This document shows positions 2 to 13,342 of a DNA stretch of 64,000 nucleotides, piece after piece. Location of the stretch: the NCBI GenBank assembly GCA_045601885.1, contig JAZSAN010000005.1, positions 21,851 through 85,850 on the forward strand, read 5' to 3'. The notes beneath the pieces were generated by a model, which saw only the letters and a program-made list of their open reading frames with translations, was not told where the DNA came from and did not search any database. The position numbers and the translations under genes are program-made. The first letter of the stretch is position 1. The number at the start of each line of letters is the position of its first letter. This stretch comes from Acutalibacteraceae bacterium. Its GTDB lineage: Bacteria > Bacillota > Clostridia > Oscillospirales > Acutalibacteraceae.

Positions 2-493
2 TTTAGACGACGATTTGGTAATTGTGAGTACATAAATGCTATCGAATATCAGAACCGCGGAGCACTACATTGTCACTTAATAGTAATTTTTGATGAAAAT
101 CCAACATTTACAATAACTAATGATGATATCAAAAAGTGTTGGAAACATGGTAGTTCTAATATCGGTCCGGTAACATCAGCGGAAGCTGATGCAAAATATC
201 TTACAAATTTTCTTTTTGAATATAAAGTAGAAAAAGAAGATTCGGACTACATATTGAAAACTAAAAAGCAACGTAAAGGTGAAAGAGTCTGTTATTATCC
301 AAGCCATAGCAGACTCTTTAATTGTTCTCAAGGTATTAAACGACCAGAAGTTATTAAAAATATTCCTTATAGTGAAGCATTATCGATGTTTAATTCAATT
401 GAATTAACAAATGCATTATCTATATATAACGACGATGGTAACATTGTTACAATCGAAAATTATAAAATAAAAAATGAAAAGGAGGTCTGCTGA
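2..493 (+). CDS. Rolling-circle replication initiator / relaxase-like HUH endonuclease, C-terminal part (5' end truncated by the window)
   Basis: The frame is open from position 2. It shows an HUH-like motif (GALHCHLIVIF) followed by E-x3-KY (EADAKYLTNF), as in pC194/pUB110-type Rep proteins. Its stop overlaps the next start (TGATG). Confidence 0.55.
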   Translation, partial: FRRRFGNCEYINAIEYQNRGALHCHLIVIFDENPTFTITNDDIKKCWKHGSSNIGPVTSAEADAKYLTNFLFEYKVEKEDSDYILKTKKQRKGERVCYYPSHSRLFNCSQGIKRPEVIKNIPYSEALSMFNSIELTNALSIYNDDGNIVTIENYKIKNEKEVC

Positions 494-766: not shown

Positions 767-2134
767 ATGGCTTCTGTTGAAAAGCGAAGTAACGGTTATC
801 GTATTACAGTTTATGACGGTTATAATGATAGTGGCCGTCAAGTAAAACACCATAAAACCTGGAAACCTTCTGCCGATATGACCGAATATCAAATTAAAAA
901 AGAACTTGAAAGACAGTGCGTTGCTTTTGAGCAAGAATGTAAGAGCGGTCAAACATTATCCGGCGCAATAAAATTAAAAGAGTATATAGAACTTTGGTTT
1001 GATAAATATGCAGTATCTCATCTCAGACAAACAACACTTGATAATTATCACGATTTAAGTAAAAGAGTTTACAAAGAAATAGGACATATCAGAATAGATA
1101 GATTAAATCCTAATGACCTTAATAAATTTTATGCCTCATTGATGGGCTACACTCCGCAAAATCATAACAACTATGCTCTCAAATTTGACTTCAAATCAAT
1201 TTTATCCGAAAGAAACATTTCATATAGGAAGTTTGCCGAAATGTCAAATGTGGGTATCAGAACAGTAAATTCAATCGCTTCTGGCGATAATGTTTCTTTA
1301 CAAACAGCACATAAAATCGCTGATTGCTTAAAGCTCGATTTTGAAAAACATTTTAAACCTGCAAATAATCAAAAAGGCATATTATCTTCTAAAACCGTTA
1401 AACATTATCATAGTTTCTTATCATCAGCATTATCCAAAGCGGTAAAATGGGGTTATATTAAAGACAATCCTTGTGATAGAGTTGACCCGCCGCGAATCCA
1501 GCATAAACAAATAAAATGTTTCACGACAGATGAAGCAAAAATATTTTTAAAAGGATTATCACAAGAATGTTTAAAGTATCGCGTAATGTTTTCAATCCTA
1601 ATTTATACTGGACTTAGGCGCGGCGAACTATTAGGTCTTGAATGGTCTGATATTAACTTTGAAAAGAAAACAATTTCAATAAGTAGAACATCAGTACATA
1701 TACGTTCAAAAGGTATTGTTACAGATACTACAAAAAATGAATATTCAATCCGCGAAATTTCTATTTCAGATGAATTAATTGAACTTTTGAAATTATATTA
1801 TCAAGAGCAGCAAGAATTAAAAGCAAAGCTTGGAGATATGTGGGTTGAAACAAATAGAATTTGCATAAGAGATGATGGCAGCCCAATGGGTGTAGGCACG
1901 CCTTATAACACGTTACAAAAGTTACTAAAAAAATACAAATTGCCTGATGTTTCATTACATAGTTTAAGACATACTAACGCTACTATAATGATTGAATCAG
2001 GAACGGATTTAAAGACTACATCTACACGCTTAGGGCATTCTCAGGCAAGTACAACAATGAATATTTATGTTCATCAAATTAAATCATCAAATGAGCATGC
2101 AGCAGAAAATATATCTAAAGCATTAGCTATATAA
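767..2134 (+). CDS. int: Tyrosine site-specific integrase with an internal XRE-like HTH insertion
   Basis: It has an N-terminal arm-binding type start (MASVEKRSNGYRITVYDGY), a catalytic region with LRRGELLGLEW, HSLRHTNATIM and LGHSQASTTMNIYVH, and a good SD. Confidence 0.9.
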   Translation: MASVEKRSNGYRITVYDGYNDSGRQVKHHKTWKPSADMTEYQIKKELERQCVAFEQECKSGQTLSGAIKLKEYIELWFDKYAVSHLRQTTLDNYHDLSKRVYKEIGHIRIDRLNPNDLNKFYASLMGYTPQNHNNYALKFDFKSILSERNISYRKFAEMSNVGIRTVNSIASGDNVSLQTAHKIADCLKLDFEKHFKPANNQKGILSSKTVKHYHSFLSSALSKAVKWGYIKDNPCDRVDPPRIQHKQIKCFTTDEAKIFLKGLSQECLKYRVMFSILIYTGLRRGELLGLEWSDINFEKKTISISRTSVHIRSKGIVTDTTKNEYSIREISISDELIELLKLYYQEQQELKAKLGDMWVETNRICIRDDGSPMGVGTPYNTLQKLLKKYKLPDVSLHSLRHTNATIMIESGTDLKTTSTRLGHSQASTTMNIYVHQIKSSNEHAAENISKALAI

Positions 2135-2176: not shown

Positions 2177-2680
2177 TTAATCATCGAAGGTATAACGGTA
2201 ATGCAAGTTATTATCATATATAAATTTGACAGACTTAATACCATTATAACCTTTTTTGAATTTTAATTTTGCAAGAATCATTTTGCGGTATTTTTCCTCT
2301 GCGAAAAAAGTGCTGCAATAAATAATAATCTTTTTATCCTTGCGTATCTCATATCTACCTCTTGGAAAGTAATAAAAAGACTTATTTTGAGTAATTGATT
2401 TATCGAAATCTTTCCATACATTTTCGTGGGAATATTTGTGTTTATCAAAAATTGCCTCTAACGAATTAAAGGAATACTTATATGTAATAAGCCGCTCATT
2501 ATTATATTTATCTTTTATTAACCAAAATACCCCTTTATTTAGGAAGTTCAAATCTTCATCCAAATATTCGCCGTCGGTGGTAATATCGGATTTTTCTTGT
2601 TTTTCTTCAATAATACTTTCAATGTATTCTGCAAGTTCTTCTCTCGTTCTTAAATTTTCGGTTAAAAAATTATAATCCAT
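2177..2680 (-). CDS. Hypothetical protein (167 aa), last gene of the minus-strand run
   Basis: Long ORF with an SD. It has an acidic N-terminus and an FYYFPRGRYEI motif. I do not recognise the family. Confidence 0.5.
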   Translation of the reverse strand: MDYNFLTENLRTREELAEYIESIIEEKQEKSDITTDGEYLDEDLNFLNKGVFWLIKDKYNNERLITYKYSFNSLEAIFDKHKYSHENVWKDFDKSITQNKSFYYFPRGRYEIRKDKKIIIYCSTFFAEEKYRKMILAKLKFKKGYNGIKSVKFIYDNNLHYRYTFDD

Positions 2681-2759
2681 CTATAACAATCCTTATTTAA
2701 TATAATAATTGAATAACTCTGCCAAATTTATAATTAAATAACAATAAATTAAGCTTAAA

Positions 2760-3986
2760 TTATCTATTAATTATTGTACAATTAGGATAATTTATTTCAT
2801 ACCAAGCCATAACACATTTTAATTGTAATCTACTAATACAAGGTGCCACCGACCATAAGCTATTTACCTCACTAAAATAATTTTTAATCCACAATGGAAT
2901 ATTATATTCATCTAAAAGATATTCATATTTATTATGCTTGTTATTATGACTCCAAAAAGCATGTTTTATAAAATCAAAGGCGATATCATCGGACATACCA
3001 TATGAAGTTAAAACTTCAAAAAATTCATCTTTAGAAACAAAAAAATCGGGTTTATATATGTTTTCTAATGATTTTTTATGAGTAAATGAACCATTTAGAT
3101 AAGCATATATTCGGGTTAATGTTTTAAAATCACATTCGGTAATCGTTTCAATTTCTTCAGTAAAAGCTCTTCCTCTAGCATATTCTTTTTCACTTATAGA
3201 TTTATTTTCTATAAATTCAGCCAACATTTCATTCGAATCTTTTGCAATGTATTTTAAAACCTCAATATACACATCTTTTTTATATTGTTCTGAGGTAGGA
3301 AAAACTCCTGTTTTTTTAGCAATTATTCCAATGTTTTCACATATCTTAGAATCTGCGATTATGATTTCCTTGTATATTTTTTTATTACTATTAACCGTAC
3401 CAAATTTCGCATTTAATCGTTTTTTAATTAAATGTTTAATTGATGCCGCAACACTTAATGAAAAATCTGGAATTTGCGGATTATAAAACGAACCCCATAC
3501 AATTTCAAATGGTATATAAAAGCCATCTTTTTTTATTTCCCCTTCGTTTTTCTGACAAATTTTATCTGGCATATCTATTCCAAAACCACTTGTAGATATT
3601 TTAGTATCAAAACAAAATGTACAAATCGAATCAGAACAACGATAATGTGCTTTCATTGGATTGATATATGAAACTCCAAGCAAATAAGCGATTACAGAAC
3701 CAGAAAGCGCGCCTTGAATCATAACAGGATAACCTTCCTCTCTTGATAAGTCTGTAATTTCTTTTATCAGAGCGAAATGAAAGGCGGTACCCGTCTTTTT
3801 CATTAATTGAAGTTCGGTTTCTAATCGTCCGACAATAAAATTCATACCATAAAGTTCACCGGCTTTTCCACGGCATAGTTTAATAATTTGTTGCTCAATA
3901 TTCTTTATTTCTTCTTCAGTCGGACAGGTAAAACTCAACTTGCAGTAATTTGTATTTTTACCCGCTGATATAATTTTAATGTTCAT
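2760..3986 (-). CDS. PolC-like (DNA polymerase III alpha, Gram-positive type) palm/fingers fragment, apparently catalytically degenerate
   Basis: It matches PolC landmarks: HY-C...C, GFGIDMPDKIC...KDGFYIPFE, and a C-terminal PLWIKNYFSEVNSLWSVAPC...AWYEINYP resembling PolC's VP.WYI.SC.KIKYMFPKAHAAAY...AYFK. PolC's PDIDLNFS is PDFSLSVA here, and the central catalytic segment is missing. Confidence 0.6.
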   Translation of the reverse strand: MNIKIISAGKNTNYCKLSFTCPTEEEIKNIEQQIIKLCRGKAGELYGMNFIVGRLETELQLMKKTGTAFHFALIKEITDLSREEGYPVMIQGALSGSVIAYLLGVSYINPMKAHYRCSDSICTFCFDTKISTSGFGIDMPDKICQKNEGEIKKDGFYIPFEIVWGSFYNPQIPDFSLSVAASIKHLIKKRLNAKFGTVNSNKKIYKEIIIADSKICENIGIIAKKTGVFPTSEQYKKDVYIEVLKYIAKDSNEMLAEFIENKSISEKEYARGRAFTEEIETITECDFKTLTRIYAYLNGSFTHKKSLENIYKPDFFVSKDEFFEVLTSYGMSDDIAFDFIKHAFWSHNNKHNKYEYLLDEYNIPLWIKNYFSEVNSLWSVAPCISRLQLKCVMAWYEINYPNCTIINR

Positions 3987-3998
3987 TTTGTTGCTCCT

Positions 3999-4673
3999 TT
4001 ATTTTACATAATATTCCTTGAAATCATTTAAACAAATACAACCCAAAATTCTACCAAAAACCGCCCCACAATCAATAGCAATATGATTATTTTTTATATA
4101 AATTTTTCCATCATATTTAGGGCCAATAAATATTGTTGGGGTGTGCCCGGTTACTATATATTTATTATCATAATATTTTTTATCATATTCAGGGGCGCCG
4201 GCAATAAAATCTTCACGCTCTAAATTGCAATCGAGCAACATTCTATCCTTTTGAGGTATAGTATGAGAAAGCCAAAATTTATTACCATCAACACTTATAT
4301 CTTTAAATATAGTAAACCGACTAATGTAGTTTATTATTTCAAATTGTTCACGCTCAGATAACTCTAGAAACGCATTATTTGTCGGTTCCCCGCCAATCAT
4401 CATCCACATTTTATATCCTAAATCAAGATAATCAAATTCTTCTCTGTTATATATCTTTTTAAACATTCTAAGCGCGGTATAATCGTGGTTACCTAATATA
4501 GGAATAACATTTTTTCTTTTCATCATATCTTGATATATTTTTATGCCGTCAGGTCCTCTGTCAACTATATCACCTAAAATATATAAAGTATCTTCATCAC
4601 TAAATTTTATCTTTTCAAGCATTTTTATATACAAATCATAACATCCGTGTAAATCACTCATTGCGTAAATCAT
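3999..4673 (-). CDS. PPP-family metallophosphoesterase (lambda phosphatase / PrpE / ApaH-like)
   Basis: Motifs present: SDLHG, GDIVDRGPDG, GNHD, GHTP. Confidence 0.85.
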   Translation of the reverse strand: MIYAMSDLHGCYDLYIKMLEKIKFSDEDTLYILGDIVDRGPDGIKIYQDMMKRKNVIPILGNHDYTALRMFKKIYNREEFDYLDLGYKMWMMIGGEPTNNAFLELSEREQFEIINYISRFTIFKDISVDGNKFWLSHTIPQKDRMLLDCNLEREDFIAGAPEYDKKYYDNKYIVTGHTPTIFIGPKYDGKIYIKNNHIAIDCGAVFGRILGCICLNDFKEYYVK

Positions 4674-4780
4674 AATTTAAACCTCTCAATAGTTATTTTT
4701 TATTATTGTATTTCTTGTAATTTAACGGCATTTTCCTACCTTTACTTACATAAAAAACACATACTGTTTTATTCTTAGCC

Positions 4781-5296
4781 TTAAACACATATTTCGTGAA
4801 TTAAGTTTCTATAAAAATCAATTTGATTTATTTTGGAAAAGTCTGTTTTTCTCTCGAGTTTTTCTCGAATGGGTTTAATCTCTTCTTCACACATATCATA
4901 ATAGGTCATATGATATAGTATTCCACCTAATATAGCATCAACGCCATATTTTTCAATACTACACTCATGAACAGGAATACCTAATGCCTGACCCCAATTC
5001 CAACCAAATTCAGTTATACCTTTTAAACTATAATTATTGGCAACAACTTTATCCATATCCGCAAGTGCAACATAAGGAAAGTTTTCATATTTTTCATGCG
5101 GTACAGCAATATAACCAAAATCTTCACCGCACAAATAACACCTTGTGGGAAGATACTCCTTGATATCATCTATTATTAAGCGATATCTTTCTATCAAAGT
5201 GTTTAAATCATCTTCCGGATATTTAGCCAACTTACAAATTGCTTTCGCAACACCTTCGACAGTGCATTCATAAATCAAATTCTCTGCATAGTACAT
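4781..5296 (-). CDS. Hypothetical protein (about 171 aa)
   Basis: The ORF-track start is 5311, but GAGGAG-7nt-ATG favours 5296. I recognise no family with confidence. Confidence 0.5.
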   Translation of the reverse strand: MYYAENLIYECTVEGVAKAICKLAKYPEDDLNTLIERYRLIIDDIKEYLPTRCYLCGEDFGYIAVPHEKYENFPYVALADMDKVVANNYSLKGITEFGWNWGQALGIPVHECSIEKYGVDAILGGILYHMTYYDMCEEEIKPIREKLERKTDFSKINQIDFYRNLIHEICV

Positions 5297-5364
5297 AAAA
5301 ATTCTCCTCACACAGTATTTTTATTTAAACTTTTTTAAGTTTTAATTTGTACCAATCACAGCAA

Positions 5365-5640
5365 TTAGAAATTTCGTCTATATCCTCGCGAATCTGTGAT
5401 GATATTCTTTTCTTTCCAATCGCACAAATTAATCCGAGCTTTATCTCTAGCGGTATATATTGTAACATTCTCATATGCTATTTCTTCAAGCAGGAATTGA
5501 ACCGCTGCAGCAACACCGTAGCAGTCGCCAATTATTATTTCATTACCTTCTTTACAAAGGTTCATAATGTAATTTATCGCTTCAATAGGCAGGCCGCTTA
5601 ATTCTTTACTGCCAAATATGTATACCTTCAAAAGTACCAC
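5365..5640 (-). CDS. Small Rossmann-like protein, possibly SLOG/DprA/DUF2493-like
   Basis: The pattern KVYIFGSKEL...NEIIIGDCYGVAAAVQ..L....NVTIY resembles SLOG/DprA-type folds. It has a GTG start and a weak SD. Confidence 0.35.
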   Translation of the reverse strand: MVLLKVYIFGSKELSGLPIEAINYIMNLCKEGNEIIIGDCYGVAAAVQFLLEEIAYENVTIYTARDKARINLCDWKEKNIITDSRGYRRNF

Positions 5641-5650
5641 TTTCTATAAT

Positions 5651-6439
5651 CTAAATGATTGTTTTTTTAATAAAATCACTAACAGGATACAACGCTATAT
5701 CTTTACCGGTTAGTTCTTCTGTGTAGTATTTTAAATTGGTGAAAAATAAAACATAATCTTTTTCGAGAGTTTTACCATCATCAGAGACATAATAGCAAAT
5801 AGCGCCCATATCATTTGGTGAAACGCTTTCTAATATGACTATTTTTTCTTCAATTAAATCATATAAAATATCGCCAGATTTAAAAGGAGTAGGCAGTTTA
5901 ACATAGTCTTCGGCCATCCCAAAAAAGGCGCTTAATGGGTTCCATTCGCTACATTTGTGAATAGAAATTAGTTCGCCATCAATATATTCCGCTTTAATTG
6001 TATCATCATACGTATTAAACGGTATTTTATGTATTTTATATCCCTTAACAACACGTTTTGTATTAATAATGTTTTCTTTAATATGATTTAAGCAGGATTC
6101 ATAATCTTTAAAGTAAATTGCCAAATGTGAAGTGTGTTCTTCATAATCAATAAATCCTGTATAAAATGAATTATCATCTTTTTCGGTGAGTTCCTGCTTT
6201 ATTAATTCAAGATAATCAAAGTATTCTTTTATAAATGTATGAACACTTTTGCCATCTGAACGTGCGAATTCAAAATCCGACATTGTTAAAATACATTCTA
6301 ATGCCTCTGTTTTTTCTTTTAATTTTAGATTTTCATTTTGTAATAATATCCATAAACAGTCTTGCGAACTCAATTCATAATTGATTTTTCTTAAATGCTC
6401 CGCTACATCTTTCGAGTGAATATATTTGTAAAAATCCAT
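5651..6439 (-). CDS. Hypothetical protein (262 aa)
   Basis: Long ORF with an SD (AGAAAGGA). No motif recognised. Confidence 0.5.
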   Translation of the reverse strand: MDFYKYIHSKDVAEHLRKINYELSSQDCLWILLQNENLKLKEKTEALECILTMSDFEFARSDGKSVHTFIKEYFDYLELIKQELTEKDDNSFYTGFIDYEEHTSHLAIYFKDYESCLNHIKENIINTKRVVKGYKIHKIPFNTYDDTIKAEYIDGELISIHKCSEWNPLSAFFGMAEDYVKLPTPFKSGDILYDLIEEKIVILESVSPNDMGAICYYVSDDGKTLEKDYVLFFTNLKYYTEELTGKDIALYPVSDFIKKTII

Positions 6440-6559
6440 TTTTAAAATTCCTTTCTTGAACCATTCTTTAAAATACTATTCTATTTCTTTCTATATCTAG
6501 TTTTATGGACTCAAACAGAAAATTGTACTATTTATTCCGTAAACTCGATATGGTTGGTT

Positions 6560-7021
6560 TTATGCGACATTGAAATCGTCGGCAAATTGAAATTTAAAAT
6601 CCAAACTTACGGCATAACGAGTAATAATCATGGCGTCAATTAGTCTACAACCTTCGCAATCAATTACACATTGTGGTGCTCCGAGCTCAAAAAGTCTGAA
6701 TAATCTTCTCACTCTGCATTCAACCATTTCATCTTCTAATTGCAGCTCTAAACATTGAACAACACAATCAGTCTCATATATTCCCACATTATCTTCTAAT
6801 TGAGAATATAATATTTCAAAATCATCAATTACGTTCTGCAAATCGTTTTTATCCCAATTCATAGTATAGGATTCAAAATGTTGCTTCTCATATTCATCTG
6901 AGAAAGGGTCTTCATTTCTACGTGACAAAGTCAGCATATTTTCATTTGTGTTTTCAAACAAAAGTTTTGCATACTCAGTCGGGGTAAACTCATAACCATC
7001 ATTAAAAAATTTAATCTCCAT
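6560..7021 (-). CDS. Hypothetical acidic protein (153 aa)
   Basis: Long ORF with an SD (AAGAGG). It is rich in D/E and has several Cys. Confidence 0.5.
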   Translation of the reverse strand: MEIKFFNDGYEFTPTEYAKLLFENTNENMLTLSRRNEDPFSDEYEKQHFESYTMNWDKNDLQNVIDDFEILYSQLEDNVGIYETDCVVQCLELQLEDEMVECRVRRLFRLFELGAPQCVIDCEGCRLIDAMIITRYAVSLDFKFQFADDFNVA

Positions 7022-7128
7022 TTTATTACCTCTTAATTCTTTATTCTAAAATTAAAAATAAACTTTTATATTTCACGGATGGTATTGCTCGTTTTATGGG
7101 TTTTCGTACATTAGTAACCACATCTTAC

Positions 7129-7890
7129 TCACAAAGAATCATAAAATTTAATAACCTTATCTATAAACTCTTTTACCATAGATTTATCAATCAACGCTTT
7201 GTGTCTTTGATAATATTCTTCAATTTTCCTTAAAGTGCGTATAAACTGCGGAATCGTAAGTTCCGTTTCTGTTAGAAGCATTAATGCTTCATTTTCAATT
7301 TTCACGCAAGAATTTTCTAAAAAGTTTGTTACCATTTCAATACGCTTTTCTTTGGCGGTAAAACCTGTATCAGCAAAAAGTGCCTCTCCAAAAATAAGTT
7401 TATATAAAACTTCTAATTCATGAGGATAACAATTTGATGCCAACAACACCTTCAGTCCATTTGAAACTTTTTTTAAAATCAATTTTGCAATTTCTTCTTG
7501 TGTTGTGGTTTTATTTAGCAAATAATCAACATCATCAATTATTAGAAGTTGCACTTCTTCAATTTCGTTTAGTCGTGTTTTTCGCTTGAATATAAAACTT
7601 AGATATTCTTCGCCCAATTCTTTGGCGTTAAGCGAACAAACACTGTGTTTTGTTTTGAATTGATTTTCCGTAGCTCTAAGAAGATGAGTTTTGCCTCGTC
7701 CAATTGGACCATATAACCATAATATCTTTATATCGTAAGGCAATGCTGAAAAAAATTCTTTACAAGCTACAACTGCAAAACGGTTAGTAGAATCTTCTAT
7801 GAATGTATCAAATGTAAATTCCTTTATGTCCAATTTCGCACAATCTACAGGTGACATACTAATATCGCCACTACAATTTTTAATCTCCAT
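7129..7890 (-). CDS. DnaA/Hda-like AAA+ ATPase lacking the DnaA DNA-binding domain
   Basis: Walker A is LYGPIGRGKTHLL and Walker B is LLIIDDVDYL. A DnaA domain-III-like TTQEEIAKLILKKVSNGLKVLLASN follows. At 253 aa it has no domain IV. Confidence 0.75.
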   Translation of the reverse strand: MEIKNCSGDISMSPVDCAKLDIKEFTFDTFIEDSTNRFAVVACKEFFSALPYDIKILWLYGPIGRGKTHLLRATENQFKTKHSVCSLNAKELGEEYLSFIFKRKTRLNEIEEVQLLIIDDVDYLLNKTTTQEEIAKLILKKVSNGLKVLLASNCYPHELEVLYKLIFGEALFADTGFTAKEKRIEMVTNFLENSCVKIENEALMLLTETELTIPQFIRTLRKIEEYYQRHKALIDKSMVKEFIDKVIKFYDSL

Positions 7891-7956: not shown

Positions 7957-8004
7957 ATTATACTATTTACGTGGGCGAAATTTTTCCCACGCAAAGAGTA
8001 TAAT
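7957..8004. promoter_or_regulatory. Back-to-back promoters centred on operator palindrome copy 2
   Basis: The plus strand reads ATTATA-8nt-GTGGGCGAAATTTTTCCCAC-8nt-TATAAT. This places a TATAAT 8 nt from each side of the palindrome, one facing each way. Confidence 0.55.
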
Positions 8005-8060: not shown

Positions 8061-8095
8061 GTGGGAAAATTATTTCCTACATTATGCGATATAAT
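8061..8095 (+). promoter_or_regulatory. Operator palindrome copy 3 plus a -10 immediately upstream of the WYL gene
   Basis: GTGGGAAAATTATTTCCTAC (8061-8080) is followed 9 nt later by TATAAT (8090-8095). Confidence 0.5.
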
Positions 8096-8145
8096 GGTTG
8101 TGTAAATCAAAGATTTACGTTATAATATTTAAGAGGTGTTAAATT

Positions 8146-9696
8146 ATGGTTCCGGAGTTAAAAAGGCTAAAAGTACTATATGTTTATGAAATTCTTTCAA
8201 ATTCGGGTGAAGAAATGTCCCGAGCAGAAATTAACAGAATTTTATGGGACAAATATAAGATAAAAGAAACACCAAAAACCTTAAAAAAATTATTAGATGA
8301 TATGGTTTACGCAGAACTTATCGAAACCGGAGAACAGAAAGATAGAAAAACCAAAAAAATAGATGAAAACGGTAAATTGATAGAAGAAGATACAACAATG
8401 ACCATGGGATATTTTGTTGAGAAAGATTTTTCTGATGATGAGCTGTTATGGATTATACATAACACTATTTTTTCTAAGCAACTTACCGAAAACAAATCTA
8501 ATAATTTAGTTAAAAAACTTCTTAAATTAGGAACTAACGGCTTAAAGCAAAAAGTTGGTAGCGTTGAAGGTATGAAACAGTTTTACCATACCCCTAATCC
8601 CGCAGTATCTAATAATATTGAAACTTTAAGTGATGCAATTCACGAAGATAAAACCGTTCAATTCATTTATACTGAATACAAAAAAGATAAACAGTTACAT
8701 CCGCTATCTGAAGAGCCGATTACTGTTAAACCTGCGCGTATGGTTCCGCTTAATGGATTTTATTATCTAATAGCCTATGAAACAGAGAGCGAGACTATCC
8801 AGCACTACCGAATAGACAAAATTAAAAATCTTAAAAAGACTGATATAAAAACCGATTTCAGTTCCAAAAACAGTCGCATAAACATTGATGAATATTTATC
8901 TTCACATTCTTTTATGTTTGCAGGTAAACCTATACCGGTAAAAATCAAAGTCCCCGAAGATAAAATCGGTCTGGTTATTGATAGGTTTGGTGATAAAATT
9001 CATATTTATCAGGATGATAGCGACTATGTATCAATAGGTTTTAATTCTAACGAATCAGACCTTTATGTATGGGCGCTTGAAAATGGTGATTATGTCGAAG
9101 TAATCGAACCGCAGCATTTAAGAAATAAAATCAGAAATACCGTACAATCAATGACAAGATGTTATTTACAATCAAATGAAGACATTTATTTTAATGCTAT
9201 AAAAACCGCAAGAGAAACCCAAATATTTTATTGTGAAAATTTCAATTTTGCTAACAGAGAAGAATGGCTTCAACTTACAGATATTGAAAGCCTTGACCTT
9301 GACAATAATGGTTTTACCGATATTTCTATATTAAAACGCTTTAAAAAACTTGAATTTTTAAAAATTCAAAATGAACATATATCAGATATTTCTGTAATAA
9401 AAGAGTTACCCTCTTTGGGAGATTTATGTTTGCGAAATACAGATGTTGATAGCATTGAAGGTTTGCGCAATAGCAATATCGGATTTGTGGAATTATTAAA
9501 TAATAAAAACATTACAGATTATAGTCCGCTTTATGATATTAAGAAATTAAGATTGCTCACCATCGATAATAAATCTGCAGAGAAAATTGATACAGAAAGA
9601 TTACTTAAAAAATATGACCCACTTGAAATTGTAATAGAATATCCGGATAGAGAAGATAAACATTTATTTTCCAAATCACTTTTAGAAGAAAATTAA
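8146..9696 (+). CDS. WYL-domain transcriptional regulator (wHTH-WYL-WCX) with a C-terminal leucine-rich-repeat domain
   Basis: It has an N-terminal wHTH. The WYL-type core is VQFIYTEY...NGFYYLIAYETESETIQHYRIDKIKNL. The C-terminus has about five 22-aa internalin-type LRRs (LDLDNNGFTDISILKRFKKLEFLKIQNEHISDISVIKELPSL...). Confidence 0.75.
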   Translation: MVPELKRLKVLYVYEILSNSGEEMSRAEINRILWDKYKIKETPKTLKKLLDDMVYAELIETGEQKDRKTKKIDENGKLIEEDTTMTMGYFVEKDFSDDELLWIIHNTIFSKQLTENKSNNLVKKLLKLGTNGLKQKVGSVEGMKQFYHTPNPAVSNNIETLSDAIHEDKTVQFIYTEYKKDKQLHPLSEEPITVKPARMVPLNGFYYLIAYETESETIQHYRIDKIKNLKKTDIKTDFSSKNSRINIDEYLSSHSFMFAGKPIPVKIKVPEDKIGLVIDRFGDKIHIYQDDSDYVSIGFNSNESDLYVWALENGDYVEVIEPQHLRNKIRNTVQSMTRCYLQSNEDIYFNAIKTARETQIFYCENFNFANREEWLQLTDIESLDLDNNGFTDISILKRFKKLEFLKIQNEHISDISVIKELPSLGDLCLRNTDVDSIEGLRNSNIGFVELLNNKNITDYSPLYDIKKLRLLTIDNKSAEKIDTERLLKKYDPLEIVIEYPDREDKHLFSKSLLEEN

Positions 9697-9723
9697 TGTA
9701 AACAAATATTTACAAACAAAAAA

Positions 9724-9768
9724 ACCGATAGATAATGCAAAATCGCAAAATCTATCGGTTAATTTTTT
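9724..9768 (+). terminator. Rho-independent terminator of the WYL gene
   Basis: ACCGATAGAT...ATCTATCGGT stem followed by TAATTTTTT. Confidence 0.65.
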
Positions 9769-9770
9769 GT

Positions 9771-9790
9771 GTGGGAAAATTTTTTCTTAC
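9771..9790 (+). promoter_or_regulatory. Operator palindrome copy 4
   Basis: GTGGGAAAATTTTTTCTTAC is followed by TATGGT (9795-9800). It points into the 3' end of the convergent XRE gene. Confidence 0.4.
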
Positions 9791-9818: not shown

Positions 9819-10118
9819 TTAATTCTTGTTTTCAAGGGCTTTTATAACATTTATAACTACGTCAATTTCATCTTCTGAAAGGTTAGAAACGTCAAGCATA
9901 CGAACCTTTTCTATATCAAGAAGATAATCGGTTGTAACGTGGAACAGGTGCGCCATTTTTACCAAAACATCATAAGATGGGTATCTGTCCCCAGATTCAT
10001 AATATGAAATAACAGACTTAGCAACTCCAAGTCTTTCGGCTAATTCTCGCTGTGATAATTTTTGTCCTGTTCTAAGCATCTTTAATTTTTCACCAAAGTT
10101 CACTTTATTTGTACCCAC
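9819..10118 (-). CDS. XRE-family HTH transcriptional regulator
   Basis: LSQRELAERLGVAKSVISYYESGDRYPSYDVLVKMAHLFHVTTDYLL. Confidence 0.9.
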   Translation of the reverse strand: MGTNKVNFGEKLKMLRTGQKLSQRELAERLGVAKSVISYYESGDRYPSYDVLVKMAHLFHVTTDYLLDIEKVRMLDVSNLSEDEIDVVINVIKALENKN

Positions 10119-10156: not shown

Positions 10157-10186
10157 TTGACAATTGGATATTTATTATGATAAAAT
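10157..10186 (+). promoter_or_regulatory. Sigma-A-type promoter for the 10250-13107 operon, embedded in GTCAAC/GTTGAC repeats
   Basis: TTGACA (10157-10162), then an 18-nt spacer ending in TG, then TAAAAT (10181-10186). GTCAAC/GTTGAC inverted copies and further GTCAA/TGAC elements flank it and are likely XRE operators. Confidence 0.55.
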
Positions 10187-10249
10187 AGTGGACAAGACAG
10201 TCAAAAACTATTATACTGACATTATAAATAACCGATTGGAGTGTTTGTA

Positions 10250-11260
10250 ATGTCAAAAAAAGTTTTTTTGGAAATGTATCAAGAGTTTATAGTAGAAATG
10301 GGTAAAGGTGAAGGTACAGCTAAAAGCTATGTATCATATTTAAACGGTGCTTGTAAAAATCTTCCTGAAATTGAAGATAATGCAATAGATAATATTGCTG
10401 ATATGACACAAGATGTTCAAGAAATATTTTGCGAAAATTTAATGAGAGCAATAGCTTCGGCACAAAAAAATAATAATACGTCTGTGTCAAATAAAACACT
10501 AGACAATTATCACAGTGCTGTTAATATGTTAATAGCATTTATAAATAGTAACAATGCACCTGCAAGTACAAAACCGGTTGTTAATATATTGTCTCTATCG
10601 GGTGAAGAAAGTTATTATTCTAAAGAAGATATTAAGAAGAACTTTTTAGCTCGTTTAAAAACACAAGACCGTTTTTATAATGAGTTTGGTTGTTTTCCAA
10701 TCAGGCTAATTAACAAAATAGCAACAGCAAATGGTAAGATTAAATTATTTGATAAATTAATTAATAATACAAGTTTTATATATAGTCTAACTGATGATAA
10801 GAAATCTCAATTAAGAATCATACAGCTTAAGGATATTGACGGTGTCTACATAAAAGATAATAAAGCATATGTTTCCATAAATAACAACAATTATCCAATT
10901 TTCACCGAAGAATATACCGATGGAAAGAAATCAGGATACGTAGTTGCTACCGTTAATACTTTTGGTGATTTGTCGTTAGACCACGATACTCCTATGTTTA
11001 CAGCTTTGTCCGGATTTTTCTATAGAGGAGCAACTACATTTGAGCAACTTTCGGTTAGTGCTTTAAAATACGTCAATAAAAAGCAATGGAGTAACAAAAA
11101 ACGAGCTAATAATCTTTCAAAAGAATATCTACATAGTCAGGAATATAAAGATTTAAAATTATCAGAAGAATCACTTTTGAACGAGGTTTTAGCCTTCATC
11201 AATACATTATCTTTAACTGTCATGCAAAGAAGTTTTAACAGTTCTAAAAATAAAAATTAA
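10250..11260 (+). CDS. Hypothetical protein (about 336 aa), with weak HNH-like hints
   Basis: GGAG-8nt-ATG at 10250 is preferred over the track's GTG at 10241. SLDHDTPM and a C-terminal QRSFNSSKNKN are only loosely HNH-like. Confidence 0.5.
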   Translation: MSKKVFLEMYQEFIVEMGKGEGTAKSYVSYLNGACKNLPEIEDNAIDNIADMTQDVQEIFCENLMRAIASAQKNNNTSVSNKTLDNYHSAVNMLIAFINSNNAPASTKPVVNILSLSGEESYYSKEDIKKNFLARLKTQDRFYNEFGCFPIRLINKIATANGKIKLFDKLINNTSFIYSLTDDKKSQLRIIQLKDIDGVYIKDNKAYVSINNNNYPIFTEEYTDGKKSGYVVATVNTFGDLSLDHDTPMFTALSGFFYRGATTFEQLSVSALKYVNKKQWSNKKRANNLSKEYLHSQEYKDLKLSEESLLNEVLAFINTLSLTVMQRSFNSSKNKN

Positions 11261-11278
11261 AATATAGGAGGAATGGAA

Positions 11279-12202
11279 ATGGGTGTAAATTTTATAGATG
11301 ATTTTATTGAAGATAACACATTGAATGATACCGCTTTTTATGAATTAAAATCTACTTTAATGGAAGCAATTAAAACATCAAAAAAATCAAGCATAACTGT
11401 GCATTATCCTAGAAATAACTATGGAGAGGCAGATTACCGATTACATATCAAAGCAAATTTAAATGCAATTAGACAGAATATTAACAATGAAAAAGCAATT
11501 AAAATTTATCTAGATTTCATTTTAAACGATGGAACATATTCCTCCGATATCAACCCTAATATTGCAAAAACGGAAATGTCATATGCAAAATTTTCTAATC
11601 TAATCTGTTATGAATTTGTTTATTATGTTATTAAACCATTATTAAATAAGTTAAAATCTTTGGATGACAAATATGGAATTTTAAGCGGCCAAACTGACGC
11701 AGTTGTCGGTATTTCTAAGAAAGCAACAACTAAAAAAGCCCCTGTAACACTTAAATGCGAAGTAAAACTTGAAAGCGTTGATGAATCCGGTGATGGCGAA
11801 ACTGTTGTCGAACCAACCAGACAGAAAATGAGGTCAATGTTTTTGAAGGCAACTACAAATAAAAATAAGTATAAATTTCTTATTAAGTCGACCTTAGAAA
11901 ATAAAAAGTATGATTATGTTGAAGTTAATTATAATAAAGACGGTTTAATCGTTTCGCTTATAAAGGACGAAAATGTTGAACAATCAAAATCGGTTAATAG
12001 CACCGTTGCTTATCGTGTTGTTAATGAATACATAAAGTGTGAAGACATAAATATTGATTCTATAGAGCAGGATGTTCTTTCACAACCGCCTAAACCAAAA
12101 CCAGTGCAACAAAGCAACAATTCATCTGGAGCAGGATGTTTAACGGCAGCTATTCCTATTGTCTGTTTTCTTATATACATAATACTTAAATTTTTTGATT
12201 AG
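11279..12202 (+). CDS. Hypothetical tail-anchored membrane protein
   Basis: AGGAGG-7nt-ATG at 11279; the track start at 11273 is too close to the SD. There is a single C-terminal TM helix (CLTAAIPIVCFLIYIILKFF). Confidence 0.5.
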   Translation: MGVNFIDDFIEDNTLNDTAFYELKSTLMEAIKTSKKSSITVHYPRNNYGEADYRLHIKANLNAIRQNINNEKAIKIYLDFILNDGTYSSDINPNIAKTEMSYAKFSNLICYEFVYYVIKPLLNKLKSLDDKYGILSGQTDAVVGISKKATTKKAPVTLKCEVKLESVDESGDGETVVEPTRQKMRSMFLKATTNKNKYKFLIKSTLENKKYDYVEVNYNKDGLIVSLIKDENVEQSKSVNSTVAYRVVNEYIKCEDINIDSIEQDVLSQPPKPKPVQQSNNSSGAGCLTAAIPIVCFLIYIILKFFD

Positions 12203-12218
12203 TGAGGTGAATCAATAA

Positions 12219-12425
12219 ATGGCAGATAAATATATTGTTGAAAGCGTAGTACATAATCGCGCTGTAAAGACAGAGGTATGGGCTCACACACCCAAAGAGG
12301 CCCAGGCATATGCAAAAAAGACATATGGTGACGCATATTCACATTCTTTTAGAACTACCAGGGTTTCTGGGACAAACGGTACTGAAGAATTTAAATGGCG
12401 TCGCGATAGAGGTATGCTTAAATAA
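12219..12425 (+). CDS. Small hypothetical protein (68 aa)
   Basis: It has a GAGGTGA SD and shares a PKEAQAYAKKTYG-like motif with the next small ORF. Confidence 0.45.
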   Translation: MADKYIVESVVHNRAVKTEVWAHTPKEAQAYAKKTYGDAYSHSFRTTRVSGTNGTEEFKWRRDRGMLK

Positions 12426-12473
12426 TCTCTTAATGAGCTTGTTTTAGAAAATAAAAGAAAGGAGTTTACAAAA

Positions 12474-12638
12474 ATGCATGAATTTCTTGTAAGATTTACC
12501 CTTAACAGAAAGACTGTTGAAGAAGTTGTAAAAGCAGTAAGCGGTTTTGAAGCTAAAGAGCAAATCAAAAACAAATATGGTAGCAGTAATGTTACTATTA
12601 TTAACTGTAAAGATTTAAAATTCGGTTGGATGGTTTAA
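12474..12638 (+). CDS. Small hypothetical protein (54 aa), not in the ORF track
   Basis: AAAGGAG-8nt-ATG start. Translation is MHEFLVRFTLNRKTVEEVVKAVSGFEAKEQIKNKYGSSNVTIINCKDLKFGWMV. It resembles the preceding 68-aa protein. Confidence 0.4.
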   Translation: MHEFLVRFTLNRKTVEEVVKAVSGFEAKEQIKNKYGSSNVTIINCKDLKFGWMV

Positions 12639-12651
12639 GGAGATGGTTTAA

Positions 12652-13107
12652 ATGTTGAAAAAGTTAACTGCTTTAGTTTTAGTACTATTATTATGTATGG
12701 CTTTTGTAGGTTGTGGAGAATCAAATAATCAAGATGAAGAAAAAACAAAAAATAATGTTTCTTCAGTTGAAAGTGATTCTTTAGACGCAGAATCAAATTT
12801 ACTAGAATCAAATATTGAATCTAATGTCGAGTCGGAAGTAGATAATTTGACAATATGTGTTTCTTGCGGAAACCGATTCGAATCATTGCGTGGATTCAAA
12901 TATTGTAATTCATGTAGATGTTGGACAACCACTTGTGAAAATAAAAGAGTAGATGGTTCGTCTTTTTGTGCTGAACATAAATGTTTGATATGCGATAGTA
13001 TTGCGTACGATTATTCCCCTTACTGTAATCAACATCGTTGTCGTGAATATGGTTGCGATTCTCCCGCGATATCGGGAGAAGAGCGTTGTATAGCTCATTT
13101 AAAATAA
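12652..13107 (+). CDS. Lipoprotein with Cys/His-rich repeats
   Basis: The signal peptide carries a lipobox (LCMAFVGCG). The C-terminal half has repeated C-x9-11-C-x2-H-x-C units. Confidence 0.65.
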   Translation: MLKKLTALVLVLLLCMAFVGCGESNNQDEEKTKNNVSSVESDSLDAESNLLESNIESNVESEVDNLTICVSCGNRFESLRGFKYCNSCRCWTTTCENKRVDGSSFCAEHKCLICDSIAYDYSPYCNQHRCREYGCDSPAISGEERCIAHLK

Positions 13108-13259: not shown

Positions 13260-13342
13260 TGGTGCGGGTGACAGGACTTGAACCTGCACGAATGCTCACC
13301 AGATCCTAAGTCTGGCGCGTCTGCCAATTCCGCCACACCCGC
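13260..13342 (-). tRNA. tRNA-Leu (anticodon UAG), long variable arm, encoded CCA
   Basis: The reverse complement GCGGGTG..CCAGA-CTTAGGA-TCTGG..GGTTCAAGTCC..CACCCGC-A-CCA folds as a class II cloverleaf. Confidence 0.9.

Follow-up and report, generated by a model that had tools for sequence, protein, structure and literature searches.

A WYL-domain regulator fused to an internalin-type leucine-rich-repeat domain on a tRNA-Leu integrative island of gut Clostridia

The window analysed here, a stretch of 64,000 nucleotides from an Acutalibacteraceae bacterium (assembly GCA_045601885.1, contig JAZSAN010000005.1, positions 21,851 to 85,850), begins within an integrative island bordered by a tRNA-Leu gene, and this island carries a gene encoding a DNA-binding-type WYL regulator fused to a leucine-rich-repeat (LRR) domain. 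The gene occupies positions 8146-9696 of the forward strand, exactly the open reading frame (ORF) proposed by the initial annotation, which had been made from the sequence alone, and its product of 516 amino acids (aa) was characterized with the ORF list, Pfam, AlphaFold2 (AF2), and Foldseek. From the N-terminus, the protein is composed of a winged helix-turn-helix (wHTH), a three-helix linker, a WYL domain, a WCX domain, and five internalin-type LRRs of 22 residues each. The fusion of a wHTH-WYL-WCX regulator to an internalin-type LRR, as originally proposed, is confirmed by Pfam, by sequence matches in the Protein Data Bank (PDB), by the AF2 model, and by Foldseek, and the protein is cytoplasmic and DNA-binding in type, as had been expected; its N-terminus is a wHTH, with no signal peptide.

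The wHTH (8146-8430, residues 1-95) is delimited by AF2 secondary structure and Foldseek. The model places helices at residues 3-20, 26-37, and 43-55, the last being the putative recognition helix, followed by a hairpin of strands 64-72 and 78-86. No HTH model of Pfam matches the N-terminus of the 516-aa protein, and the assignment is made because of the AF2 fold of residues 3-86, the full-length Foldseek alignments, and the relatives that match HTH_11 or HTH_12 at their N-termini. The linker (8431-8595, residues 96-150), with predicted helices at residues 97-108, 115-128, and 131-137, is the best-conserved segment of the family and the counterpart of the three-helix bundle (3HB) described for DriD (PMC13004042). 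The WYL domain (8614-8835, residues 157-230) is matched by PF13280 above the gathering score (E 4e-11), in agreement with the core previously outlined at 8656-8835, and the WCX domain (8929-9153, residues 262-336) is matched by PF25583 (E 1.3e-8; 35.5 bits against a cut-off of 23.9). Residues 153-336 are matched by the PADLOC Cas-associated WYL model (1e-27), and the WYL-WCX part of DriD is matched at the sequence-profile level (E 1.5e-10). Foldseek searches of the PDB aligned full-length PafBC, DriD, CapW, and BrxR over approximately 350-390 columns, including the HTH, with E values of 3e-12 to 1e-10 for PafBC and DriD and of 2e-7 to 4e-6 for CapW and BrxR. The protein shows the features of class A wHTH-WYL-WCX regulators (Mueller et al., 2019), namely an N-terminal wHTH, a WYL domain with conserved ligand-site residues, and a WCX domain, which serves for dimerisation.

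The LRR module (9166-9639, residues 341-498) comprises an N-cap helix (residues 344-358 in the AF2 model), 22-residue repeats of the form LxxLxLxxNxIxDIxxL, and a C-terminal strand. Five complete repeats, beginning at residues 380, 402, 424, 445, and 468, are found besides the N- and C-terminal caps, where roughly five had been counted, and the stretch originally assigned to them (9268-9600, residues 375-485) agrees with the domain results. Pfam LRR_4 is matched in three stretches (E 1.2e-7), and in a PDB sequence search residues 375-475 match a designed LRR, a Roco LRR, and internalins A, B, and H (E 2.5e-24 to 1e-10), with the Roco and InlA/B/H matches at E 1e-18 to 1e-10. The AF2 model, built from an input of 33 family members, has a mean predicted local distance difference test score (pLDDT) of 82. 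In the LRR part, pLDDT exceeds 90, and short strands at residues 382, 404, 426, 447, 470, and 494 are joined by short helices with a period of about 22 residues, so that the C-terminal repeats model as an LRR solenoid; Foldseek superposes this part on the internalin LRRs of InlA and InlH with a root-mean-square deviation of 1.8-3.6 Å. At a net charge of -11, the acidic LRR part is a poor candidate for DNA binding.

In PafBC, the essential residues of the WYL domain are the beta1 Tyr/His, the Tyr of the WYL triplet, and an aromatic residue and Arg of the beta4/beta5 loop (PMC6789036). Their equivalents in the window protein, assigned by position and motif and not by alignment to PafBC, are Y178, Y206/Y207, and Y221-R222. 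Within the close family (alignment A1), Y206, Y207, Y221, R222, and D224 are invariant and Y178 (beta1) is kept in at least 90% of the sequences; the broad alignment keeps Y206, Y178, and R222 at 90% or above, and Y206/Y207/R222, invariant in alignment A3, are conserved in all three alignments. The WYL domain is probably still ligand-responsive, and since its ligand residues are kept, the LRR would add to nucleic-acid sensing and not substitute for it.

A second feature of the locus is a 20-bp palindrome, GTGGGAAAA-nn-TTTTCCCAC (GTGGGA-N8-TCCCAC), which occurs in four copies in the window, all intergenic and all inside the island, against a chance expectation of zero. The first operator-like copy (GTGGGAAATAAAATTCCCAC, 698-717) is located upstream of the integrase gene (ATG at 767) and is followed after 9 nt by TATAAT. 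The second (GTGGGCGAAATTTTTCCCAC, 7971-7990) lies between a leftward operon and the regulator gene, with TATAAT at 8 nt on both strands. The third (GTGGGAAAATTATTTCCTAC, 8061-8080) is followed after 9 nt on the forward strand by the TATAAT of the regulator's own gene and, at the same distance on the reverse strand, by TGnTAGAAT. The fourth (GTGGGAAAATTTTTTCTTAC, 9771-9790, forward strand), followed after 9 nt by TAAACT, lies past the terminator hairpin of the regulator gene and points antisense into a gene of the XRE family, towards the cargo. The palindrome is separated from the TATAAT-like box by a fixed 8-9 nt, often on both strands, and the same palindrome-promoter arrangement is present in five related loci (L001, L002, L003, L049, and L050), in L002 also before DNA_pol_A and the integrase gene. 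These five loci carry the 8061-8080 site at the same position, and an equivalent of the 9771-9790 site is found in L001, L003, L004, and L006.

In 21 palindrome-linked promoters, the best match to TTGACA at a spacing of 16-18 nt averages 1.6 of 6 positions, compared with a background of 2.6 of 6 for all TATAAT-like hexamers in the compared sequences. DriD likewise recognises a pseudo-palindrome (ATACGAC-N7-GTCGTAT), which overlaps the -35 position of promoters that have no recognisable -35 element and keeps a constant spacing from their -10 box (PMC13004042), and PafBC promoters have a -10 element and a -26 element but no -35 (PMC8635444). Palindromes of about 20 bp in bidirectional promoters are also the binding sites of BrxR and CapW, the repressors of the family (PMC11662680), and some of the sites described here have TGn extended -10 boxes. 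The sign of regulation is therefore not settled, but the layout observed here, with no -35 and a fixed distance between site and -10 box, as for DriD and PafBC, favours activation over the de-repression initially suggested.

Other promoter elements surround these sites. A proximal sigma-A-type promoter of the regulator gene is located at 8099-8127 on the forward strand (TTGTGT at 8099, a spacer of 17 nt, TATAAT at 8122), and a small inner palindrome, TAAATCaaaGATTTA, lies between its -35 and -10 elements at about 8104-8118. The TTTGCGTTATAAT-like core of this inner palindrome is kept in related loci, with partial conservation in L001, L002, and L003, and it could be a site for another regulator, e.g., the XRE protein. 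The cargo has a near-consensus promoter of its own (TTGACA, 18 nt, TAAAAT; 10157-10186), and the divergent intergenic region between the XRE gene and the cargo contains GTCAAC/GTTGAC repeats and no copy of the 20-bp palindrome. The promoter linked to the 9771-9790 site (compare L004, 11593-11627) could give rise to an antisense transcript that lowers XRE expression and reads into the cargo; if such a transcript is made, cargo expression would be coupled to the switch formed by the WYL-LRR protein.

Comparison of the close family reveals a linker-WYL-WCX core that is 80-100% identical, flanked by a wHTH and an LRR that occur in discrete, independently assorting classes. Relative to the window protein, the wHTH is 42% and the LRR 84-87% identical in P0003 and P0004, and the wHTH is 89-100% and the LRR only 33-38% identical in P0005 to P0010; P0011 and P0027 are 50% identical in their N-terminal parts and 98% in their LRRs. 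Between the window and locus L049, the integrase is 99%, the wHTH 100%, the core 95%, and the LRR 35% identical, and the synonymous divergence (dS) rises from 0.04-0.14 in the wHTH and core to more than 2 in the cap and LRR. This jump, with its breakpoint near residue 340, indicates that recombination replaced the segment by an old allele. The ratio of nonsynonymous to synonymous divergence (dN/dS) is 0.17-0.19 within one LRR class and 0.09-0.13 in the core, and the low value within the LRR class indicates that each allele is maintained by selection. As judged from these comparisons, the LRR and the wHTH are swapped between near-identical islands by recombination, with purifying selection acting on each. 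Hypermutation of the LRR in situ was rejected, given a saturated dS over the swapped segment and a dN/dS of less than 0.35, and no silent LRR donor cassettes are present in the window.

Within the repeats, variability is highest at the exposed positions of the concave face (2.40 bits, compared with 1.60 in the rest of the repeat and 0.76 in the scaffold). The LRR class does not co-vary with the XRE protein, with the 262-aa or the 153-aa protein of the leftward operon, or with the type of cargo, so that a co-evolving partner within the island is unlikely; the XRE, 262-aa, and 153-aa proteins were rejected as partners of the LRR for this reason. The LRR appears to behave like a specificity module. 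This reading is supported by the cassette exchange, the purifying selection, and the variable concave face, and the protein-sensing regulator that the initial annotation envisaged is compatible with these data.

As regards the protein that binds the palindromes, the WYL-LRR protein has at least five allelic wHTH classes, 30-44% identical to one another, and the XRE protein is 84-99% identical in all islands; taken by themselves, these values would make the XRE protein the better match for a conserved operator. Loci L004 and L006 point in the other direction. They are 99% identical in their integrases and XRE proteins and 93-95% in their 262-aa and 153-aa proteins, and their WYL-LRR alleles are 30% identical in the wHTH, 73% in the core, and 36% in the LRR. 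The palindrome before the WYL-LRR gene differs between them as well (ATAGGCGAAATTTCGCCCAT in L004 versus CATGTTCGAAAAAACGGACATG in L006). We assign the palindromes to the WYL-LRR protein because the operator follows the regulator allele in this pair and because the XRE intergenic region lacks the palindrome.

The island in which this regulator resides makes up the first 13.2 kb or so of the window and has a GC content of 0.29-0.31, compared with 0.33-0.42 beyond. Its right border is a tRNA-Leu(tag) gene (13260-13342, reverse strand; ARAGORN), which also borders five of the six related loci scanned for tRNAs, and core genes (YunB, NAD-dependent ligase) follow beyond it. At the left end, the window start cuts a gene for a rolling-circle Rep protein (REP_ORF2-G2P), of which the 3' part remains (2-490, forward strand; Pfam 6.7e-12) and a complete homologue is found in L049. 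Next come a 62-aa ORF (493-681; no Pfam match), placed where an excisionase gene would be expected, and a tyrosine integrase gene (767-2134, forward strand; Pfam Phage_integrase 2.8e-28). The leftward accessory/replication operon (2177-7890, reverse strand), delimited by ORFs, Pfam, and synteny, encodes, from left to right, a 167-aa ORF, a PolIII-alpha-like protein, a Metallophos protein, DUF6557, a 91-aa ORF, the 262-aa protein (5651-6439, reverse strand), the 153-aa protein (6560-7021, reverse strand), and a DnaC/DnaA-like ATPase. All eight islands compared encode the 262-aa protein, and five of them the 153-aa protein; neither matches Pfam, PHROG, or PADLOC models.

The WYL-LRR gene is divergent from this operon and convergent with the XRE gene, from which it is separated by an inverted repeat resembling a bidirectional terminator (9715-9768). 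The XRE-family HTH_3 regulator (9819-10118, reverse strand; 99 aa; Pfam HTH_3 1.2e-16) is similar to capH/control proteins in PADLOC, and its gene is the most conserved of the island family (84-99% identity, even where the WYL-LRR core is only 49% identical). The variable cargo (10241-13107, forward strand) consists of four ORFs of 339, 309, 68, and 151 aa with no family assignment, and its proteins match no PADLOC or Pfam defence families; the genes neighbouring the regulator have no PADLOC matches except to generic HTH and WYL models. The last cargo ORF (12652-13107, forward strand, 151 aa) has a lipoprotein-like start (…LLCMAFVGCGES) and a Cys-rich end with repeated CxxC-type spacing.

Seven related loci have the same layout, which defines a family of tRNA-Leu islands in gut Clostridia with a variable cargo slot. 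The replication module upstream of the integrase is of two unrelated kinds, Rep in the window and L049 or DNA_pol_A with a D5-type (D5_N) primase-helicase in L002, L004, and L050, and a SUFU-like gene is seen at the far left with either of them. The cargo of the related islands comprises a protein of 1494 or 1619 aa, a radical-SAM pair, or Band_7/LRR_5/DUF6273 genes. No direct repeat of at least 14 nt of the tRNA-Leu 3' end, which would mark a second att site, was detected within the related loci, and the island length is estimated at roughly 17 kb from the fuller relative L049. Phage satellites such as phage-inducible chromosomal islands and staphylococcal pathogenicity islands (SaPIs) would combine an integrase, a master regulator, a replication module, and functions for hijacking the packaging of a helper phage. 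An integrase, a Rep or PolA and D5 primase module, and regulators are present here; terminase, capsid, and packaging genes were not recognised, many ORFs have no assignment, and no relative was found in IMG/VR in a scan with the family alignment. For these reasons we describe the element as an integrative island of unsettled type that may represent a satellite or a mobilisable element.

The WYL-LRR architecture extends well beyond this island. A word-indexed search of 5.8 billion proteins identified approximately 33 clusters at 90% identity with the same architecture (498-535 aa, 40-90% identical to the query), none of which has been named, and the same type of search with the broad alignment returned nothing beyond this close family. 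An exhaustive profile search over 1.84 billion representatives at 50% identity, in which the matches listed reach E 4e-80 and the cluster count is a lower bound, yielded among the best 150 matches at least 45 proteins of 490-750 aa in which the profile is covered from wHTH to LRR, mostly in one stretch. Pfam detects WYL in 43, LRR_4 in 39, and WCX in 35 of 45 such proteins, and none of the ten broad-set clusters looked up has a name. The close family is found in only three GTDB species representatives, all metagenome-assembled genomes of Acutalibacteraceae or Eubacteriales. Among 50,697 phage records searched with tblastn, the fusion is absent, with partial matches only to the WYL-WCX part or to the LRR part, and a fold search of BFVD retrieved giant-virus LRR proteins and a small phage WYL protein but not the fused architecture. 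No description of a WYL-LRR fusion was found in the searchable full-text literature; the 2019 census of WYL architectures shows no class of fewer than 100 sequences. The view that the architecture was undescribed thus stands as far as this literature goes, but it is not unique, with at least 45 clusters at 50% identity, and by these searches it is a sizeable unnamed family that is not rare in gut Clostridia.

A second subfamily of approximately 20 clusters, with proteins of 585-750 aa and one cluster holding 351 member sequences, has a further DNA-binding domain C-terminal to the LRR. This additional HTH is sigma-70 region 4-like in some proteins and FtsK-gamma-like in others (P0092 was modelled), so that two unrelated HTH types share the position after the LRR (P0084, P0099, P0138, P0200, and P0093; alignment A5). 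The nearest relatives of this subfamily that have no LRR are ordinary HTH-WYL-WCX regulators of 336 aa from Clostridia. More distant WYL-LRR genes (L051, 3082-4350; L053, 10860-12137; L054, 9462-10739) are repeatedly linked to a gene for a soluble AAA+/Peptidase_M41 (FtsH-like) protein, and the one in L051 also to nSTAND3, cREC_REC, Snf7-like, and RNase_T genes, a combination suggestive of a conflict system in which proteolysis is regulated. The occurrence of these genes in conflict-type loci indicates that the fusion is used outside the tRNA-Leu island family as well. An LRR with repeats 39% identical to those of the window protein is also found, as a long array, fused to an extracytoplasmic function sigma factor (regions 2 and 4) in P0056 (623 aa). 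Approximately 40 Bacillaceae genomes (Rossellomorea, Cytobacillus, and others; L008-L048) encode a WYL-WCX protein 25-31% identical to residues 99-340 of the window protein; these matches end near residue 340, ahead of the LRR, and belong to a separate, apparently chromosomal family.

We tentatively favour, at a little short of even confidence, the interpretation that the WYL-LRR protein is a DriD/PafBC-like master regulator of the tRNA-Leu island that acts via the 20-bp palindromes and uses its LRR as a second, allele-specific, and likely protein-directed input. A dimer of the protein would bind the GTGGGA-N8-TCCCAC palindromes 8-9 bp upstream of the -10 boxes of -35-less promoters, and it would thereby control its own gene, that of the integrase, and the divergent accessory/replication operon; the fourth site faces the cargo and reads antisense into the XRE gene. 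If the protein works as DriD and PafBC do, single-stranded nucleic acid bound to the WYL domain would probably lead it to activate these promoters. The LRR would supply a further, allele-specific input, most likely through a protein-binding surface; its partner would be encoded outside the island, by a phage, a rival element, or the host, and islands would trade the module by recombination. A more demanding version seems rather unlikely, namely that the island turns on only if the LRR allele encounters the particular foreign protein, of a phage or a rival element, that it matches, perhaps with single-stranded DNA (ssDNA) at the WYL domain also required, and that it is retargeted via cassette swaps.

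Several observations weigh against the master-regulator interpretation. The inter-domain geometry of the AF2 model is not confident (predicted template modelling score 0.43), and the variability of exposed positions is generic to LRR proteins. The correspondence between wHTH and operator appears loose, because wHTH classes only 35-44% identical (those of the window, of L050 and L003, and of L002) share nearly the same palindrome; moreover, the downstream site in L006 retains the L004-type sequence, and L004 and L006 have only a half-site before the integrase gene. In the relatives of 585-750 aa, the HTH that follows the LRR makes it conceivable that the LRR is an arm or spacer there, not a sensor. 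Several palindrome-linked promoters also have a TGn extended -10 element and could therefore fire without an activator, which would fit a repressor.

This last point leads to the alternative that survives best, although we regard it as fairly improbable: the WYL-LRR protein would be a repressor, like the Stl of SaPIs or CapW and BrxR, which occludes the -35 region of the integrase, replication, and own promoters and is released by a phage protein captured by the LRR and/or by ssDNA bound to the WYL domain. CapW and BrxR are wHTH-WYL-WCX repressors that act on palindromes of about 20 bp in bidirectional promoters, the regulator gene is divergent from the life-cycle operon of the island in the classical position of a master repressor, and a single palindrome between two divergent -10 boxes could shut both, in addition to the target promoters whose extended -10 needs no activator. 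Against this, a site over the -35 position, with no -35 hexamer and a fixed distance to the -10 box, is documented for the activators DriD and PafBC, and the matches to these proteins (E 3e-12 to 1e-10) outscore those to CapW and BrxR (E 2e-7 to 4e-6) in Foldseek and in hidden Markov model comparisons; neither point is decisive.

It is unlikely, but a live rival in view of the relatives with a second HTH after the LRR, that the LRR is a structural scaffold, serving as an arm for a second DNA-binding domain, as a dimer-dimer (looping) surface, or as a contact to RNA polymerase, with regulation exerted via the WYL domain only. About 20 related clusters combine wHTH-WYL-WCX-LRR with a subsequent sigma-70 region 4-like or FtsK-gamma-like HTH, the operators are arranged in a manner that favours cooperative binding (two spaced 90 bp apart and two more 1.7 kb and 7.3 kb off), and the ligand residues of the WYL domain are intact. 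However, the 516-aa form has no second HTH, and neither a spacer nor a contact with a conserved host protein predicts that LRR alleles only about 35% identical are swapped among islands 95-99% identical, or that the concave face is the most variable part.

Still less probable is the assignment of the palindromes to the XRE protein or another factor instead of the WYL-LRR protein. In its favour, the XRE protein (84-99% identity across all islands) and, in most islands, the palindrome are well conserved, which the wHTH is not; yet the XRE proteins of L004 and L006 are 99% identical and the palindromes before their differing WYL-LRR alleles differ, the intergenic region of the XRE gene itself has GTCAAC/GTTGAC repeats instead of such a palindrome, and outer half-sites with an 8-bp A/T spacer fit the geometry of DriD and BrxR. 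The least probable alternative, a BrxR/CapW-type regulator of an anti-phage system in the cargo for which the palindromes of the integrase gene and accessory operon would be secondary, can appeal to the PADLOC WYL score on residues 153-336 (1e-27), to a cargo that varies beside the regulator pair in the manner of a defence hotspot, and to distant WYL-LRR relatives in operons resembling conflict systems (AAA+/M41 protease, nSTAND3, cREC_REC, Snf7), but the cargo is served by a strong canonical promoter and by a highly conserved XRE regulator of its own, the intergenic region between them lacks the palindrome, no cargo protein of the window matches a defence family in PADLOC or Pfam, and the LRR class does not follow the type of cargo.

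The fusion is thus real and was correctly described, an undescribed variant of a well-known regulator class with a testable circuit, in which we infer how the LRR would act. To our knowledge, all characterised WYL regulators (PafBC, DriD, CapW, and BrxR) read one signal, single-stranded nucleic acid; if the LRR adds a protein input, the WYL-LRR proteins would be the first WYL factors with a second, exchangeable input. The locus is tractable, as it offers a predicted operator, four predicted target promoters (integrase, accessory operon, own gene, and antisense to XRE), and natural LRR-swap, wHTH-swap, and operator variants, which makes the hypothesis directly testable by reporter and binding assays.

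Compared with known systems, the window protein is closest to DriD of Caulobacter crescentus and PafBC of mycobacteria, wHTH-3HB-WYL-WCX activators that sense ssDNA and have the same domain order as residues 1-340. They are its best Foldseek matches, the WYL hallmark residues are kept, and the candidate operators, like the DriD and PafBC sites, are pseudo-palindromes that take the place of a missing -35 element at a set spacing from the -10 box. In contrast to these proteins, with which it shares a sequence identity of only 13-18%, the window protein has an additional C-terminal LRR domain of approximately 175 residues, and its gene lies on, and apparently controls, a mobile island instead of a chromosomal DNA-damage regulon. 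The repressors CapW of CBASS and BrxR of BREX have the same core fold, palindromic sites of about 20 bp in bidirectional promoters by their own genes, and an association with mobile or defence DNA. They differ from the window protein in having no LRR, and the promoter layout of the window is closer to that of the activators; membership among BrxR/CapW-type defence regulators was rejected, as no recognised defence operon adjoins the gene and the cargo stands behind an XRE regulator with its own promoter.

The LRR shares its 22-residue repeat form with InlA, InlB, and InlH and with the Roco LRR. Unlike internalins, however, the window protein has no signal peptide, no internalin cap or IR domains, and no cell-wall anchor, and its repeats are fused to a cytoplasmic transcription factor. 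Internalin membership was rejected, since the NCBIfam internalin models match only the LRR part (residues 341-474), with 28-35 bits where their cut-offs demand 1050-1600, and since the protein begins with a wHTH. With sensors of the nucleotide-binding LRR (NLR) and signal transduction ATPase (STAND) type the protein has in common an LRR as a possibly variable recognition module in a conflict-related protein. It lacks their NTPase (NACHT, NB-ARC, or STAND) and effector domains, and its output would be transcription; membership was rejected because Pfam, NCBIfam, and PADLOC scans found no such NTPase domain.

Stl proteins are the master repressors of SaPIs. The likeness to them is functional and drawn from general knowledge: a regulator in a small integrative island, highly variable among related islands, with a proposed induction of integrase and replication genes by a specific foreign protein. 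The two have no sequence or fold relationship, the window protein may be an activator, and, unlike in the SaPI/Stl case, no helper phage, packaging genes, or protein ligand was identified for the window island. If the more demanding version of the interpretation given above is true, the WYL-LRR proteins would be a bacterial equivalent of LRR-based immune recognition coupled to transcription, and a new way of doing what Stl does for SaPIs.

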